Source: a virus (Duplodnaviria > Heunggongvirae > Uroviricota > Caudoviricetes). From it: a DNA stretch of 64,000 nt. The stretch covers positions 69,905 through 133,904 of the IMG/VR virus record IMGVR_UViG_3300021399_000001; one strand, 5' to 3'. The notes beneath the pieces were generated by a model. It searched no databases. It was given only the letters and a program-made list of their open reading frames with translations, and was not told the DNA's origin. Shown piece by piece: positions 27,822 through 63,346 of this stretch. Within the stretch, counting starts at the first letter, position 1; every line of letters starts with the position of its first letter. A program made the translations under genes and the position numbers.

Positions 27822-27850
27822 TTGACTATCAATAAAAATTATGCTATAAT
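27822..27850 (+). promoter_or_regulatory. consensus phage promoter copy 1 (TTGACT, 17-nt spacer, TGcTATAAT)
   Basis: -35 TTGACT 27822-27827; extended -10 TGCTATAAT ending at 27850. Confidence 0.65.
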
Positions 27851-27918
27851 TATTACATCAGGAGGAGGAAAGGAACTCCTACCTGATGTAATAAAAATAT
27901 ATAAGGAGAGGAACTTAT

Positions 27919-28221
27919 ATGAAGTACTACAGTGATGTAACTAAGAAGTTTTATGACAATGCTAATGATTGTCTATCTGCTGAGCGCGAACTAATCGCCA
28001 AGCAGGAAAAGGAAGAATATGAAAAGAAGCGCATTGCGGCCGAACGCAAGGTTGCCGCAGATAAGGTAGAAGCCGCACGTAAGGCTATGAACGAAGCTCA
28101 GTCTGCCTACAAGAAGGAGCTAGAGGCTTTCTGTTCTAAATATGGCAGCTATCATTACTCTACCAAGGATGTCAGTGATATTCCTACCCTATTTAATGAT
28201 ATTTTCAATATCTTCCATTAA
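27919..28221 (+). CDS. hypothetical protein (coiled coil)
   Basis: RBS AAGGAGAGGAA; downstream of consensus promoter copy 1. Confidence 0.5.
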   Translation: MKYYSDVTKKFYDNANDCLSAERELIAKQEKEEYEKKRIAAERKVAADKVEAARKAMNEAQSAYKKELEAFCSKYGSYHYSTKDVSDIPTLFNDIFNIFH

Positions 28222-28276
28222 TGGGCTGGCCGTAAGGCCCTGGTCCACCTAACGGCGGGGCAATTCCCCGCAATAT

Positions 28277-28365
28277 GTCCGTATACTCAAGTGGCTGAAG
28301 AGATCGGTCTTGAAAATCGAGAGGTCAGGCAACTGGCGCGAGGGTTCGAATCCTTCTACGGACGC
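28277..28365 (+). tRNA. tRNA-Ser (anticodon TGA)
   Basis: Acceptor GTCCGTA/TACGGAC, T-arm GAGGG-TTCGAAT-CCTTC, long variable arm, CCA encoded. Confidence 0.65.
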
Positions 28366-28372
28366 CAATATG

Positions 28373-28443
28373 TGGTTGGTAGTTTAACGGTAAAACTCCT
28401 GGTTGTGGCCCTGGTAATGCAGGTTCGACTCCTGTCCTTCCAT
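28373..28443 (+). tRNA. tRNA-His-like (anticodon GTG) with tandem U-U mismatches in the acceptor stem
   Basis: Perfect standard 7/2/4/7/4/1/5/7/5/4/5/7/5/7 geometry. Anticodon loop TTGTGGC. G at position -1. Acceptor 5' TGGTTGG versus 3' CCTTCCA gives two U-U pairs. CCA encoded. Confidence 0.45.
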
Positions 28444-28447
28444 CCAT

Positions 28448-28522
28448 ATCCCACTGGCGGAATTGGCATACGCGCTAATCTAAGGAGTTAGTTTTTTCCG
28501 AGTTCGAATCTCGGGTGGGATA
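28448..28522 (+). tRNA. tRNA with atypical anticodon loop (CTAAGGA, apparent anticodon AAG)
   Basis: Perfect acceptor ATCCCAC/GTGGGAT, T-arm CCGAG-TTCGAAT-CTCGG, CCA encoded. The anticodon assignment is uncertain. Confidence 0.45.
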
Positions 28523-60138: not shown

Positions 60139-60255
60139 ATGAATAGTCCTTGTGTTAAGTGCAACCCTAAAAAAGAAGATTGTTATAAATGGTCTACTTG
60201 TTTTAAGCGAAAATTATGGGTTAAAATTTGTAAAATTTTTGGAGGTATAATATGA
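60139..60255 (+). CDS. small Cys-rich protein (38 aa)
   Basis: ATG-60139 after TAAAGGAGGATTTT. ORF track 60040 starts inside the promoter TTGACT. An 18-codon uORF at 60090 has a strong RBS. Confidence 0.35.
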   Translation: MNSPCVKCNPKKEDCYKWSTCFKRKLWVKICKIFGGII

Positions 60256-60908
60256 AAAATGAAAAGCCACTTGGTTATCTAGGCGGAGACATTATGACTT
60301 TTGGAAGCAATCTTGCGCGTGAATACGAATACGAGCAATTTAAAAAGGCAGAAATTCCAGGAGAAGTATATTCGCCCGTTCAAAACAAATCAATTAATGA
60401 TAAATCAAATATGACAGAAGAAGAAAACAATGTACTCGCAGAGAAGATTGTTGCTGCTGATGTAGAGCGTTTATGGAATAGTGACTATACTGTGCTTTGT
60501 CCAGAACAATCCGCCATTGGCACTATGTGTGAAATGGGGATTTTATATGGTTGGAAATATATGCTTGAACATATCGCTGATGAAGCCAAGGAAAAGTTCT
60601 GGCAAAAATATAATAATGATGAAACAGCACAAAGAATAGATTCTAATTATAGAAACATGACTCAAGAAGAAAAAGCATATATGTATGATTGCTTTTATGA
60701 AGTTATGAATAAACAATGGCAAAAACAAAATTATGCTCATTATTTTGATATTCGCACTAATCATCTAAATGAAAAAGATTGGCGTCGTAGTTTTTCTATA
60801 AATCAATTTTTGTATGGAATTATTCTCGCGGCAACTGCCGATGGAACTTTACATAATTCATTTGATGAAATTTTACCAATTTTGAAGGAGAAATATAAAG
60901 ATGAATGA
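60252..60908 (+). CDS. nucleoside 2-deoxyribosyltransferase-like protein
   Basis: PLGYLGGDIMT...YSPV and GTMCEMGILYG (putative nucleophile Glu) fit the NDT fold pattern. Confidence 0.45.
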   Translation: MKNEKPLGYLGGDIMTFGSNLAREYEYEQFKKAEIPGEVYSPVQNKSINDKSNMTEEENNVLAEKIVAADVERLWNSDYTVLCPEQSAIGTMCEMGILYGWKYMLEHIADEAKEKFWQKYNNDETAQRIDSNYRNMTQEEKAYMYDCFYEVMNKQWQKQNYAHYFDIRTNHLNEKDWRRSFSINQFLYGIILAATADGTLHNSFDEILPILKEKYKDE

Positions 60909-62178
60909 TATGCTTTATAATATTAATGACCGTCTTCCCGCAAAGCGACTAATTGTCGCTGCTCTACAACAGGTAATTGCTTGCTTTGTAGCCACAATTC
61001 TTATTCCACAGATTTGCGGTATTCCCATTGCCCCAGCAATGGTAGGCGCTGGTATCGGTACACTTGTTTATCAGCTATTCACACACTCACAAAGCCCTAT
61101 GTTTATTAGCTCTTCTGGCGCTTTTGTCGCTGCTGTCATGGGCGCGTTAGCATTGGGAACAGCCCCTAATTTTACTGCTGTTGCCATTGGTGGTGTTATT
61201 GTAGGTATTGTTTATTGTATTATCGGTAGTATTATTAACCATTTTGGTACAGACTGGATAAATGAATTACTACCTCCTGTTGTAATCGGACCAGTCGTAG
61301 CGGTAATTGGTTTAAATTTGGCTACTTTCCTTCCAACCTATTTTCAAGTAAATGGACAATATAGTTTAATTGGATTTGGTTTTGGTATGCTTACTTTAGT
61401 AATTACTGCACTAATTTCTCATTATGGTAAAGGATTTATTAAAAATTTACCTTTCTTATTTGCTATTTTGATTGTGTATGTAATTGCAAGTATTACAACC
61501 GCGATTCACCATATTCCTCTTGTAAATTTTGCAGCATTCGATAATGTTCATCTATTTGCAATGCCTGATTTTAGTTTCTTCCACATTGATTTTACTACAT
61601 TTAATTGGAAACTATTACCTCAGATATTATTACTATTCTTGCCTCTTTCGCTAGTTACTTTTTCTGAGCATATTTCAGACCATAAAGCTCTAAGCGCCGT
61701 TATTGGAACAGACTTAACTGAGCATCCAGGTCTTGGTAATACAGTTATTGGCGATGGTATTGCTTCTACTGTTGGCTGCTTTATTGGTGCCCTACCAAAT
61801 ACTTCTTATGGTGAAAGCGTAGGAACCACCGGTTTTAGTAAGATTTGCTCTAAGCATGTAATTCGTTTGGCCGCAGTTATTATGGCTATTGCTGGTTTCT
61901 TTGGACCACTTCAAGCTTTCCTAGTTTCAATTCCAAGTTGCATCTTTGGTGGATGTGCAGCGATTCTTTATGGATATATTACTCTATCTGGTATTCGCAC
62001 AATTAAAGACAGCGGAATTGATTTAAATAATAACAAAAATGTAATTATTCTTGCTTCTATTCTAACACTTGGTGTATCTGGCGTAGTTTGTAATTTTGGT
62101 ATCATTTCATTTGGGACTACTGCGTTAGCTATGATTGTTGGAATTGTATTAAATATAATTTTAAAAAATAATAATTAA
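60901..62178 (+). CDS. NCS2-family nucleobase (uracil/xanthine) permease
   Basis: 425 aa with ~12 TM segments. LQQVIACFVATILIPQICGIP and GIGTLVYQLFT match the NCS2 signature regions. Confidence 0.6.
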   Translation: MNDMLYNINDRLPAKRLIVAALQQVIACFVATILIPQICGIPIAPAMVGAGIGTLVYQLFTHSQSPMFISSSGAFVAAVMGALALGTAPNFTAVAIGGVIVGIVYCIIGSIINHFGTDWINELLPPVVIGPVVAVIGLNLATFLPTYFQVNGQYSLIGFGFGMLTLVITALISHYGKGFIKNLPFLFAILIVYVIASITTAIHHIPLVNFAAFDNVHLFAMPDFSFFHIDFTTFNWKLLPQILLLFLPLSLVTFSEHISDHKALSAVIGTDLTEHPGLGNTVIGDGIASTVGCFIGALPNTSYGESVGTTGFSKICSKHVIRLAAVIMAIAGFFGPLQAFLVSIPSCIFGGCAAILYGYITLSGIRTIKDSGIDLNNNKNVIILASILTLGVSGVVCNFGIISFGTTALAMIVGIVLNIILKNNN

Positions 62179-62194
62179 TGGAGGTATAAATATT

Positions 62195-62482
62195 ATGGAA
62201 ACAAATAAAACAATTAAATTCAATGATTTAACTAGAGAATTTATAGAAGATTTTATTTCAAAAATGAGCAATGATGATAAAAAGAAATTAAAACAGTATA
62301 TAGAAGATAATCCTAAAAATTCATCAACCGCATTATTTACAATGGTAAAAAGTTACATTTATAATTATTATTTTCGTGCTCAATCATTACCTGCTCATAA
62401 AAAAAACACTTTTGCTGACGTAATTGATTCATTATTAGAATGTGATGAAGAACAGGTAAATAATAATGAAAAAACAGAATAA
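62195..62482 (+). CDS. hypothetical protein
   Basis: RBS AATGGAGGTATAAATATT; 95 aa. Confidence 0.5.
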   Translation: METNKTIKFNDLTREFIEDFISKMSNDDKKKLKQYIEDNPKNSSTALFTMVKSYIYNYYFRAQSLPAHKKNTFADVIDSLLECDEEQVNNNEKTE

Positions 62483-63308
62483 TTTTGTAAAAAGTCCAAT
62501 GAATTATCCCGGCAATAAGTATAAACTACTTCCACAATTATTTCCTTTGTTTCCTAAACATATTAATAATTTTATTGATTTATTTGCTGGCGGATTAGAT
62601 GTTTCTTGTAATATTCAAGCCAAAACAAAATACGCTAATGATATTAATCAGCCATTAATAGAAATTTATAAAGCTTTTCAAACAATAAGCTATGAAGAAT
62701 TAATAAATTTTATAAACATGCGCATCAAAGAATTTGAATTAACCAAATATAACTATGATGGTTTTATCCGGTATAGAACGTTATATAATAATAATCCTCA
62801 ATATCATACCCCATTAGATTTATTTGTATTATCACGTTTTACTTATAATAACGTACTTGATATTAGAAATGGAATATCAAACGCAGGTTTTGGCTTTGAT
62901 CATTCTGATTTTAATATAACTCAAAGAGCTCACACCAAATTTTTGCACGAAAAAATATCAAATATTATTTTTTCTTCTTTAAATTTTTTGGATTTTAATA
63001 TAAATAATTTTAATAATAATGATTTTTTATACGCTGATCCTCCTTATTTAATAAGTGGGAATGTATATAAAACAATTAATTGGACTGAAAAAGAAGAAAA
63101 AGAATTATACGAATATTTAGATCAAGCAAATGAAATAGGAATTAAATGGGGATTATCAAATGTAGTATCGCACAAAGGAGATGTTAATGATATCCTGGCC
63201 CAATGGATGAGTAAATATAACGTTTATGATATTAATTCTAATTATTCTAATTCTTATTATAAACATAAAGATAATTTTACAATAGAAGTTTTTATTACAA
63301 ATTATTGA
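62466..63308 (+). CDS. dam: DNA N6-adenine methyltransferase (Dam / D12 class)
   Basis: SPMNYPGNKYKLL, DLFAGGLDV (motif I) and YADPPY (motif IV). Confidence 0.7.
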   Translation: MKKQNNFVKSPMNYPGNKYKLLPQLFPLFPKHINNFIDLFAGGLDVSCNIQAKTKYANDINQPLIEIYKAFQTISYEELINFINMRIKEFELTKYNYDGFIRYRTLYNNNPQYHTPLDLFVLSRFTYNNVLDIRNGISNAGFGFDHSDFNITQRAHTKFLHEKISNIIFSSLNFLDFNINNFNNNDFLYADPPYLISGNVYKTINWTEKEEKELYEYLDQANEIGIKWGLSNVVSHKGDVNDILAQWMSKYNVYDINSNYSNSYYKHKDNFTIEVFITNY

Positions 63309-63317
63309 TAATTTGAA

Positions 63318-63346
63318 TTGACTTTAGATTAAAATTATGCTATACT
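63318..63346 (+). promoter_or_regulatory. consensus promoter copy 20
   Basis: TTGACTTTAGATTAAAATTATGCTATACT. Confidence 0.6.

Follow-up and report, generated by a model that had tools for sequence, protein, structure and literature searches.

Twenty repeated promoter cassettes in an uncultured large phage probably form an early regulon read by the host primary sigma factor

In Herelleviridae, the early and middle promoters of phage K and vB_SauM-515A1 are of sigma-70 type and combine TTGACW, a 17 bp spacer, TRTGN, and TATANT (PMC10383478). T4-like phages carry repeated early-promoter cassettes known as promoter-early stem-loops (PeSLs; Arbiol et al. 2010, PMC2839356; Comeau et al. 2014, PMC4122927). 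An earlier note on the DNA studied here reported twenty copies of a promoter cassette and did not recognise it as a described element. That judgment was half right: the core TTGACW-17-TRTGnTATAAT is published (PMC10383478) and repeated early-promoter cassettes are known as PeSLs (PMC2839356), but the clade-specific AAATT and +1 additions differ from the Herelleviridae consensus.

The window, by which we mean the whole 64-kb stretch of DNA analysed, holds 20 plus-strand sites that match TTGACT-N17-TATAAT with at most one mismatch, and one minus-strand site at 17-nt spacing. The chance expectation is ~1.6 sites with both strands summed, and composition-preserving shuffles gave a maximum of 6. 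A weight matrix built solely from promoters of other phages finds the same 20 sites at 28-57 bits and nothing else in the window above 10 bits, which confirms the twenty copies and their outer coordinates exactly. The cassettes span 27822 to 63318, and the same scan places none within positions 1-27800. The spacing, described earlier as invariably 17 nt, is so in 20/20 copies, and the extended -10 TG, described as frequent, is present as T(-15) in 20/20 and G(-14) in 12/20. We take as predicted +1 the A seven nt past the -10. The cassettes and adjoining features are as follows.

27822..27874, plus strand: cassette 1, TTGACT-17-TATAAT with TG, 47.0 bits; 62-nt leader with a strong hairpin (z = -5.6), then ORF 27919-28221, DUF3800-XI RNA, and tRNA Ser/His/Leu
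28527..28579, plus strand: cassette 2, 48.9 bits, beginning 2 nt past the tRNA-Leu 3' end; followed by no ORF, 218 nt untranslated, then tRNA-Val and the remaining tRNA array
32514..32535, plus strand: terminator-like hairpin and T-run, 9 pairs (6 GC), ending 9 nt before the cassette 3 -35
32544..32596, plus strand: cassette 3, 43.3 bits; then a small ORF at 32605 and a DUF5662 gene (32738-33238)
35496..35548, plus strand: cassette 4, 44.3 bits; then ORFs at 35551 and 35609-36070
36266..36318, plus strand: cassette 5, 43.4 bits; 58-nt leader with a hairpin, then a DUF2828/DUF7788 gene (36359-37891; PHROG name, RNA-binding protein)
37905..37934, plus strand: terminator-like hairpin and T-run, 13 pairs, ending 4 nt before the cassette 6 -35
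37939..37991, plus strand: cassette 6, 37.2 bits; then ORF 38002-38292
39365..39417, plus strand: cassette 7, 56.5 bits, the top consensus match with the sole perfect 10-bp inverted repeat; then ORF 39427-39672 and an RNA ligase gene (39689-40339)
40336..40388, plus strand: cassette 8, 43.0 bits; 226 nt untranslated, then two tRNA-Met genes
42971..43023, plus strand: cassette 9, 48.6 bits; then ORF 43028-43231
43232..43284, plus strand: cassette 10, 49.9 bits; then ORF 43283-43657
43676..43728, plus strand: cassette 11, 27.7 bits, -10 TATACT; then small ORFs at 43737 and 43847-44191
44178..44230, plus strand: cassette 12, 35.3 bits, -35 TTGACA; then ORF 44237-44437, a drum RNA, and two tRNA-Leu genes
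45061..45113, plus strand: cassette 13, 38.2 bits, -10 TATACT, beginning 2 nt past a tRNA-Leu 3' end; then ORF 45120-45383
45380..45432, plus strand: cassette 14, 45.9 bits; then an ORF at 45444
45587..45639, plus strand: cassette 15, 40.3 bits; tRNA-Leu(tag) begins 74 nt past the predicted +1
46390..46442, plus strand: cassette 16, 52.1 bits; a ROOL RNA (46448-47042, 331 bits) begins 23 nt past the predicted +1
48888..48940, plus strand: cassette 17, 48.3 bits; then ORF 48947-49174 and tRNA-Thr
55316..55342, plus strand: terminator-like hairpin, 11 pairs, overlapping the first two bases of the cassette 18 -35
55341..55393, plus strand: cassette 18, 39.9 bits; then an RNase H gene (55397-55897)
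60011..60030, plus strand: terminator-like hairpin and T-run, 8 pairs (5 GC), ending 9 nt before the cassette 19 -35
60040..60092, plus strand: cassette 19, 36.7 bits; then a small ORF (ATG ~60090) and ORF 60252-60908
63318..63370, plus strand: cassette 20, 34.0 bits, -10 TATACT; ATG ~63376

All 20 cassettes are intergenic and co-oriented with the genes. Among the 17 tabulated copies, 12 have an ORF start, preceded by a Shine-Dalgarno sequence, 16-29 nt past the predicted +1 (13 if the probably spurious TTG ORF at 40392 is included); in the three untabulated copies, read from the sequence, the ORF start lies ~21-29 nt past it. Three to four copies lead directly into RNA genes, namely tRNA arrays and ROOL, and a terminator hairpin abuts the -35 in 4/20. 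Cassettes are dense among tRNAs, orphan ORFs, and RNA-repair genes; the cassette-free block at 1-27800 consists of structural genes (tail protein and Hoc-like hits).

The extended consensus spans roughly -54 to +18, and nearly all of its conserved positions appear to match known RNA polymerase contacts. We take AA at -54/-53 and the TAT directly before the -35 to provide UP-element-like upstream A/T contacts, TTGACTTT to be the -35 element, the A-tract AAA at -21 to -19 to reflect the geometry of the spacer, T(A)TG at -17 to -14 to be the extended -10 known in Gram-positives as the TRTG '-16 region', and TATAAT to be the -10 element; the discriminator after it is A/T only. T(-1)A(+1)G(+2) presumably serves start-site selection, and the purine-rich initial transcript presumably doubles as a Shine-Dalgarno leader. 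The conserved +1 region with a common leader and RBS context, as claimed earlier, is real: the copies truly share the downstream block aATTATAGAAAG as well as a purine-rich leader. Across the clade, AAATT of the spacer and TTATAG around +1 are better conserved than the like positions of textbook promoters, and an extra factor could lie behind this.

The cassette is kept at orthologous positions of related phages, which together with its intergenic, gene-oriented placement bears out the proposal of a phage regulon of promoter cassettes. Cassette 16 has eight orthologous versions, and cassette 17 is nearly unchanged in five orthologues with flanks 74-98% identical. Mismatches between orthologues are rarest in the -10 element (0.8%), followed by the -35 element and +1 to +6 (4.5% each), spacer positions 14-22 (10%), the left-arm part of the spacer (20%), and the upstream flank (22%). 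In IMG/VR the same cassette recurs throughout a clade of uncultured phage contigs 130-190 kb in length, at no fewer than 116 loci, and the 991 kb of IMG/VR sequence fetched contains 401 perfect promoters. A search of 596 Gb of bacterial genomes gave only 12 matches, all in gut or rumen Bacillota MAGs and most on contigs resembling phage; because the pattern used was very strict (26 fixed bases), this rarity says little about ordinary host promoters. No relatedness of the phage to any cultured phage was found at the sequence level.

We propose that the 20 cassettes are probably strong host primary-sigma (sigma-A/sigma-70 type) promoters constituting the early regulon of a large phage, as yet uncultured, from the gut or rumen. 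Host primary-sigma RNA polymerase would read all 20, which together would form an early, pre-replicative regulon in a phage of ~130-190 kb with a gut or rumen Bacillota host, and would drive early genes, tRNAs, and non-coding RNAs. Beyond the observed repeats, consensus, placement, conservation, and cassette-bounded indels, we infer that transcription begins at the predicted +1, that it is early, and that the polymerase is the one proposed; promoter strength is predicted. The sigma-A promoters of the actual host may differ from this pattern.

A second role may be inferred from comparison of related loci, where at least two, and probably four, small gene modules have been gained or lost exactly between two cassettes. 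The module between cassettes 4 and 5 (P35496/P36266) is missing in L005 and L025, and the P45061/P45380 module is missing in L057 and L093; both are clean indels, and in each case one chimeric cassette stands in place of two. At cassette 9 (P42971), L029 and L060 carry ~1 kb of extra sequence, bounded in L029 by a second cassette. Cassette 10 (43232) and its ORF are missing in L093, ORF 38002-38292 of cassette 6 in L016 and L093, and ORF 44237-44437 of cassette 12 in L036, L071, and L093. Endpoints of homology blocks are 4.3-fold enriched within cassettes. Since ~50 bp of near-identical DNA lies in every intergenic gap of the hyperplastic region, the cassettes may act as linkers for homologous recombination, letting small gene modules enter and leave, as in PeSLs. 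Against this, many mosaic junctions sit away from cassettes, and intergenic DNA is where junctions would be expected in any case. Neighbouring cassettes are generally no more alike than distant ones (p = 0.27).

The earlier note also described a 10-bp inverted repeat in the best copies, CTTTCTATAA-N17-TTATAGAAAG, and read it as an operator for a dimeric regulator or as a 5' stem-loop shared by all early transcripts. The repeat is indeed perfect at 39365 and reaches 8/10 in two further copies, but was overstated, as the mean over the 20 copies is 5.45/10 pairs. The right arm, taken to be the first transcribed bases, is so in part: AGAAAG is predicted to be transcribed, but TTAT is discriminator DNA. 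Within copies, 109 pairs were observed versus 107.5 +/- 3.9 after shuffling, so the complementarity is what the column consensus alone yields, and covariation of the arms is absent (p = 0.4). Nor is the repeat kept in related phages, where 222 independently sampled promoters average 4.8/10 pairs. A dimeric phage or host protein bound over the -10, a sensible repressor position, could nevertheless switch all early promoters together, off or on. The consensus across the clade is ~70% self-complementary and the true register beats shifted ones, both in the window (109 pairs vs 64-88) and slightly in relatives (4.80 pairs per copy vs at most 4.53), so there may be a weak symmetric constraint on the dyad; pairing within the 222 relatives is marginally above its shuffled value (z = 2.4), an excess that relatedness of the sampled promoters could explain alone. 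However, the half-sites are unequally conserved, the consensus base occurring in 27-62% of relatives' promoters at left-arm positions 9-13 and in 57-77% at right-arm positions 31-35; the left arm drifts in orthologues at about the flank rate; and both half-sites are perfect in one copy only. The arms lie 27 bp apart centre-to-centre, ~2.6 helical turns, which puts the half-sites on different helix faces, and a scan of 20 proteins from the early region, which has many further small ORFs, turned up neither a helix-turn-helix nor any other DNA-binding domain. With pairing at shuffle level and a left arm drifting like its flanks, we consider an operator improbable. Pairing of the arms in RNA, as a 5' hairpin or as a PeSL-like terminator or processing site in read-through transcripts, is less credible still. 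The arm-to-arm helix reaches -7.3 kcal/mol at 39365, -3.9 at 43232, and -4.8 at 60040, and PeSL stem-loops can sit between or across the -35 and -10 (PMC2839356), but the left arm sits between -35 and -10, ahead of the predicted +1, and is thus absent from the promoter's own transcript. Helix free energy is negative in 5/20 copies and positive in 15/20, the mean fold z-score is -1.0, compensatory changes for left-arm substitutions are lacking in the orthologues compared, and the A/T-rich stem with its 17-nt loop is unlike G/C-rich PeSL stems; the present analysis already largely refutes this reading. As far as these sequences tell, the inverted repeat is an accident of the consensus, with no conserved feature or selected pairing, its symmetry arising because a T-rich stretch after the -35 and an A-rich stretch after +1 each lie beside TATA-like sequence.

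Two further explanations accept the cassette and question what reads or spreads it. A phage-encoded sigma factor or phage-modified polymerase could recognise AAATT and TTATAG as its signature, consistent with an extended consensus that is clade-specific, nearly absent from bacterial genomes, and conserved beyond the canonical hexamers. We think this unlikely: hexamers, 17-nt spacing, and TRTG together match the primary-sigma consensus perfectly, transcription of early genes has to start when no phage protein has yet been made, a scan of window proteins (64 kb of genome) revealed none resembling a sigma factor, and the strictness of the search pattern deprives rarity in bacteria of much meaning. 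That the cassettes are mainly a mobile or recombinogenic repeat family, with promoter likeness secondary, would fit the cassette-bounded indels, the chimeric cassettes, and the clustering of homology endpoints. Yet all copies are strictly gene-directed at a fixed distance to start codons, purifying selection is strongest exactly on the -35 and -10 hexamers, and terminal repeats, target duplications, and a transposase are lacking, which makes this explanation very unlikely. Promoters read by the host primary sigma factor remain our preferred reading.

In coliphage T5 and Bacillus phage SPO1, early promoters form families of very strong sites read by the host polymerase. They have been characterised biochemically, and their similarity reportedly reaches from near -50 to near +20, taking in A/T blocks within the spacer and the start of the transcribed sequence. 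Their extended consensus differs in sequence from the present one, and the likeness is a lead. PeSLs share with the present cassettes dozens of near-consensus host-type early promoters in A/T-rich surroundings with a Shine-Dalgarno sequence, concentration in hyperplastic regions before orphan ORFs, indels between relatives that run from one cassette to another and leave a single chimeric copy, and fusion of some copies (here 4/20) to a terminator. In contrast to PeSLs, most copies here lack the defining stable G/C-rich stem-loop, the A/T-rich dyad forms no conserved structure, and the predicted host is Gram-positive. Herelleviridae promoters agree with the present ones in the -35, the 17-nt spacing, the TRTG extension, and the -10, occur likewise in many copies per genome upstream of early genes, and also have tRNA genes and a long ROOL/GOLLD-like RNA nearby. 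Activity of the staphylococcal phage promoters has been mapped by RNA-seq, whereas that of the present cassettes is predicted; to the shared core, the present clade adds conserved AAATT in the spacer and (A/T)ATTATAG(A/T)AA around +1.

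Allowing one mismatch at most, the motif TTGACT-N17-TATAAT occurs 20 times on the + strand of the window, between 27822 and 63318, and once on the − strand with identical spacing. Shuffled sequences of matching local composition contain 1.6 such sites over the two strands combined, and never more than 6. A position weight matrix made only from the promoters of other phages, with the window excluded, recovers the same 20 sites at 28–57 bits, while the rest of the 64 kb reaches at most 10 bits. Because a matrix from other phages returns precisely these sites, the twenty copies and coordinates that an earlier note had read from the sequence are exact. 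The matrix scan of the window adds no further degenerate copies and places no cassette within the structural block (1–27800). Taken together, the two hexamers stay within one mismatch of TTGACT plus TATAAT, and the spacer measures 17 bp, in all 20 copies, eight of which are packed into 3.4 kb (42971–46390). Each is named here by the first T of its −35 element and numbered from a predicted +1, the A seven nt past the −10. Conservation vanishes 5' of about −55 and 3' of about +16.

Conserved positions in the alignment of the 20 copies
−54/−53: AA, 15/20 and 14/20
−38 to −36: TAT, with T at −38 in 16/20, A in 14/20 and T in 11/20
−35 to −28: TTGACTTT, near invariant
−21 to −17: AAATT, 17–20/20
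−15: T, 20/20
−14: G, 12/20
−12 to −7: TATAAT, near invariant
discriminator: A/T only, aATTAT
+1 and +2: A in 18/20 and G in 12/20
from +3: purine-rich leader, AAAG.GAGAGAAAGGA

From what is established on promoter recognition, we take every conserved block to match a known contact of bacterial RNA polymerase, namely UP-like A-tracts, the −35, the spacer, a TRTG extended −10, the −10 and the start region (pyrimidine at −1, purine at +1, G at +2). The TRTG "−16 region" is present, with T(−17) in 18/20 copies, a purine at −16 in 15/20, T(−15) in 20/20 and G(−14) in 12/20, the last reaching 80% in the promoters of relatives. An extended −10 of this kind is typical of Gram-positive promoters. In hexamers, spacer length, −16 region and placement the cassettes fit primary-sigma (sigma-A/sigma-70) promoters of the Gram-positive extended type.

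All cassettes lie on the gene strand, upstream of genes. Among the 17 copies tabulated, 12 have a Shine-Dalgarno-preceded start codon 16–29 nt past the predicted +1, or 13 if a probably spurious TTG ORF at 40392 is included; in the remaining three copies, read from the sequence, start codons follow about 21–29 nt past it. Leaders of copies 27822 and 36266 extend to about 60 nt and contain a hairpin. That of 27822 (27857–27918, +) is very stable (−18.8 kcal/mol, z = −5.6) and hides a first GGAGGAGG motif, 5' of the true Shine-Dalgarno sequence of ORF 27919–28221. No ORF stands behind three copies, which are followed by tRNA-Val (28527), tRNA-Leu (45587) and ROOL RNA (46390), and the most likely targets of copy 40336 are two tRNA-Met genes; in all, RNA genes follow 3–4 copies. 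Four of the 20 copies have a terminator-like hairpin abutting or overlapping the −35.

Terminator-like hairpins at cassettes
32514–32535
37905–37934
55316–55342
60011–60030

The genes behind the cassettes are of pre-replicative type: tRNAs, RNA ligase, a cyclic-phosphate-processing receiver domain, a metallophosphatase, a DUF2828 "RNA-binding" protein, HNH endonucleases, RNase H, dNMP kinase, DNA ligase and PhoH. Since the conserved blocks fit polymerase contacts and these genes are pre-replicative, we read the cassettes as what would be the host-polymerase early regulon of the phage. The structural block is without any sigma-A-like cassette, and its late promoters must differ in type. One early-region cluster, at 34520–40339 (+), resembles an RNA-repair set and adjoins the tRNA arrays. 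The 938-aa ORF at 51709–54525 (+) matches no PHROG, no Pfam family and, by tblastn, nothing in 50,697 phage records.

Protein-coding features
1–27800, +: structural block with ORFs of 882, 1097, 904, 873, 682 and 1040 aa
within 21979–25101, +: Hoc-like C-terminal domain
25345–27150, +: tail protein
34520–35185, +: metallophosphatase
36359–37891, +: DUF2828/DUF7788 protein, named "RNA-binding protein" in PHROGs
38810–39196, +: cyclic-phosphate-processing receiver domain
39689–40339, +: RNA ligase
41319–41795 and 47140–47559, +: two HNH homing-endonuclease-like ORFs amid tRNA genes

RNA genes include several tRNA arrays that have cassettes between them.

RNA features
28222–28269, +: DUF3800-XI RNA, 64.5 bits, above the Rfam gathering score
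28277–51011, +: 29 tRNA genes called by ARAGORN
29927–30010 and 42223–42339, +: further matches to the Rfam tRNA model, missed by ARAGORN
44660–44756, +: drum RNA, 50 bits, above the Rfam gathering score
46448–47042, +: ROOL RNA, 331 bits, full-length (model positions 1–574), 23 nt past the predicted +1 of 46390

The promoter–ROOL unit is 80–99% identical in eight related loci. The drum and DUF3800-XI RNAs lie downstream of cassettes, amid tRNA genes, and cassettes 28527 and 45061 begin 2 nt past an encoded CCA end. A tRNA-His call with anticodon ATG (50647–50719, +) is unusual. The match at 42223–42339 is 117 nt long and includes about 45 inserted nt that fold into an additional arm past the anticodon region; this could be an interrupted tRNA or one unusual in some other respect. 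Two untranslated gaps separate a cassette from the next tRNA, at 40371–40596 (226 nt, +) and 28562–28779 (218 nt, +), and the first is 96.8% identical to a related locus (L093), above its neighbouring genes. A permissive search added no Rfam family in either of these stretches behind ORF-less cassettes, and neither folds remarkably (z-scores of −1.4 and −0.6, respectively); both are possibly unannotated RNAs.

Beyond the promoter itself, the earlier note had proposed that a 10-bp inverted repeat brackets the −10, as an operator for a dimeric regulator or a 5' stem-loop common to the transcripts. Counting from the first T of the −35 as position 0, its arms occupy positions 4–13 (CTTTCTATAA) and 31–40 (TTATAGAAAG). 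All ten pairs form in copy 39365 alone, and the mean over the 20 copies is 5.45. The 109 pairs observed compare with 107.5 ± 3.9 after random dealing of right arms among copies (p = 0.4); as shuffling matches observation, arm complementarity is a property of two column consensuses and not of single copies. Nor is the repeat kept in related phages: across 222 distinct perfect promoters, chosen independently of our search pattern, a mean of 4.8 of the 10 pairs form and only two promoters reach nine or more, with shifted registers giving 3.5–4.5. The total of 1065 pairs vs 1033 shuffled (z = 2.4) is a tiny excess that kinship of the promoters alone could explain. In the window copies and in relatives, the left arm is far less conserved than the right. 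Changes among orthologues concentrate in the left arm and the right arm never compensates; in orthologues of 36266, for example, the left arm changes from TTTTTCGT to TTTACTAA beside an identical right arm. Mismatch rates over 22 orthologous versions with alignments across both flanks argue that the left arm is effectively unconstrained and the right arm constrained independently.

Mismatch among orthologous cassettes
upstream flank: 22%
left-arm spacer positions: 20%
positions 14–22: 10%
discriminator: 9%
−35 element: 4.5%
+1 to +6: 4.5%
−10 element: 0.8%

A shared RNA stem-loop is further contradicted by geometry and energetics. [quoted passage not shown] An operator for a dimeric regulator fares no better, given unequal half-sites, a dyad lost in relatives and left-arm changes that go uncompensated. 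From centre to centre the half-sites are separated by 27 bp, roughly 2.6 turns of the helix. Among the 20 early-region proteins scanned with Pfam, the one DNA-binding domain is a NUMOD4 motif, which belongs to the HNH homing endonuclease at 41319–41795. On the pairing tests in the window, the 222 promoters of relatives, the orthologue comparison with its footprint, and the folding and helix energies, we reject both an operator and a paired structure for the inverted repeat. This leaves only a statistical dyad, T-rich after the −35 and A-rich after +1, each beside TATA-like sequence. That a factor bound at this weak dyad, centred at −13, gates all early promoters jointly is in our judgement very improbable. 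Of the earlier interpretation, the promoter regulon is supported by consensus, placement and relatives, and the operator or hairpin falls with a repeat that is not conserved in related phages, the finding that the note itself had named as counting against it. The cassettes do not reveal a new regulatory mechanism, as their one seemingly new feature, the inverted repeat, fails.

Relatives were sought with the pattern TTGACT-N8-AAATT-N-T-NN-TATAAT-NN-TTATAG-N-AA, whose 26 fixed bases match at least 116 stretches in IMG/VR, many of them, among the matches listed, on contigs of 130–190 kb. Blocks shared with the window are 70–99% identical and mostly collinear, marking true relatives. The 991 kb of fetched relatives hold 401 perfect TTGACT-17-TATAAT sites (325 distinct), and promoters not anchored by the pattern share the extended consensus TTGACTTTTt.taaAAatTaTG.TATAATaatTATA.AAaa. 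In 596 Gb of bacterial and archaeal genomes the pattern occurs 12 times, 11 of them in herbivore or human gut Bacillota MAGs (Ruminococcus, Acutalibacteraceae, Ca. Fimenecus, Oscillospiraceae and "Bacilli") and once in a MAG labelled Alphaproteobacteria. With almost nothing in bacterial genomes, these fixed bases are a clade-specific DNA signature. Cassette-bearing contigs binned in Ruminococcus, Ca. Fimenecus and "Bacilli" MAGs (L118, 182.6 kb; L122/L124, 184.3 kb; L126, 128.6 kb) have sizes that match those of the IMG/VR phage contigs; they probably represent phage genomes that were binned together with their hosts, which hints at a host within Oscillospirales. Megablast of 38000–47000 found no close cultured relative, returning only a 99-nt HNH fragment (~41484–41582) with 85% DNA identity to an HNH gene of Synechococcus phage S-SRM01. 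The tail protein reaches no more than 44% identity, to a Clostridium phage fragment, and the DUF2828 protein about 38% identical to large Bacillus phages.

Comparison with these relatives places module boundaries at cassettes more often than length predicts. Homology-block endpoints fall inside cassettes in 60 of 341 cases vs 4.1% expected by length, a 4.3-fold enrichment, with left endpoints clustered between −20 and +10 and right ones between +30 and +60.

Cassette-bounded differences in related loci
P45061/P45380: in L057 and L093 the intervening 87-aa ORF is gone
P35496/P36266: in L005 and L025 the intervening 770-bp module is gone, with one cassette between the outer sequences
P42971: in L029 and L060 about 1 kb extra at the cassette
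P43232: in L093 the cassette and ORF 43283–43657 are gone

The single cassette of L057 and L093 joins the upstream flank and spacer of P45061 to the −10, leader and downstream gene of P45380, and the extra sequence of L029 ends in a second cassette with a 16-nt spacer. The first three of these cases are clean, and the one at P43232/P43676 is less so, because its junction lies about 25 nt upstream of the cassette. Many junctions sit away from cassettes, for example RBS-to-RBS at 37992/38304 and at tRNA borders, and junctions are in any case expected in intergenic DNA. Concerted evolution or local duplication of neighbours was considered and rejected: two neighbouring cassette pairs are reciprocal best matches, and adjacent cassettes are not significantly more alike overall (p = 0.27). 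We tentatively propose, while judging it slightly short of an even chance, that promoter and leader form a portable unit spreading and recombining within and between the genomes of one entire uncultured clade of 130–190 kb gut and rumen Bacillota phages, driving gain and loss of small genes. Such a cassette would be placed even ahead of RNA genes, as at ROOL and the tRNA arrays.

Our data would supply a transcription-unit map for an uncultured phage clade, with predicted start sites for ROOL, the drum-RNA transcript and the tRNA arrays; for ROOL, both a strong promoter and the 5' end would become defined. They also offer naturally occurring cases in which phages of Gram-positive gut bacteria exchange modules bounded by promoters.

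A literature search combining the exact hexamers with early promoters returned nothing relevant, and we found no open-access description of the SPO1 early-promoter consensus. Staphylococcal Herelleviridae have an early/middle promoter consensus of TTGACW, 17 bp, TRTGN and TATANT, and also express ROOL/GOLLD-like RNAs beside tRNA genes (PMC10383478). The cassettes belong among such families of host-type early promoters in large phages, and they behave like the promoter-early stem-loop (PeSL) cassettes of T4-like phages, for which cassette-bounded indels and replacements between related phages are described (PMC2839356). As with PeSLs, a predicted strong host-type early promoter is repeated in hyperplastic regions ahead of orphan ORFs, and cassettes bound indels and replacements between related phages. 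In contrast, PeSLs have a stable terminator stem-loop in or abutting the promoter, whereas here only 4/20 copies have abutting hairpins and 5/20 have a stable dyad around the −10, without covariation. We do not class the cassettes as PeSLs, because most copies are without that defining stable stem-loop. The cassette-bounded indels suggest that the promoter-mediated modular shuffling of T4-like phages is also at work in phages of Gram-positive gut bacteria; if the portable-unit proposal is true, the cassette would be a Gram-positive, stem-loop-less counterpart of the T4-like PeSL system.
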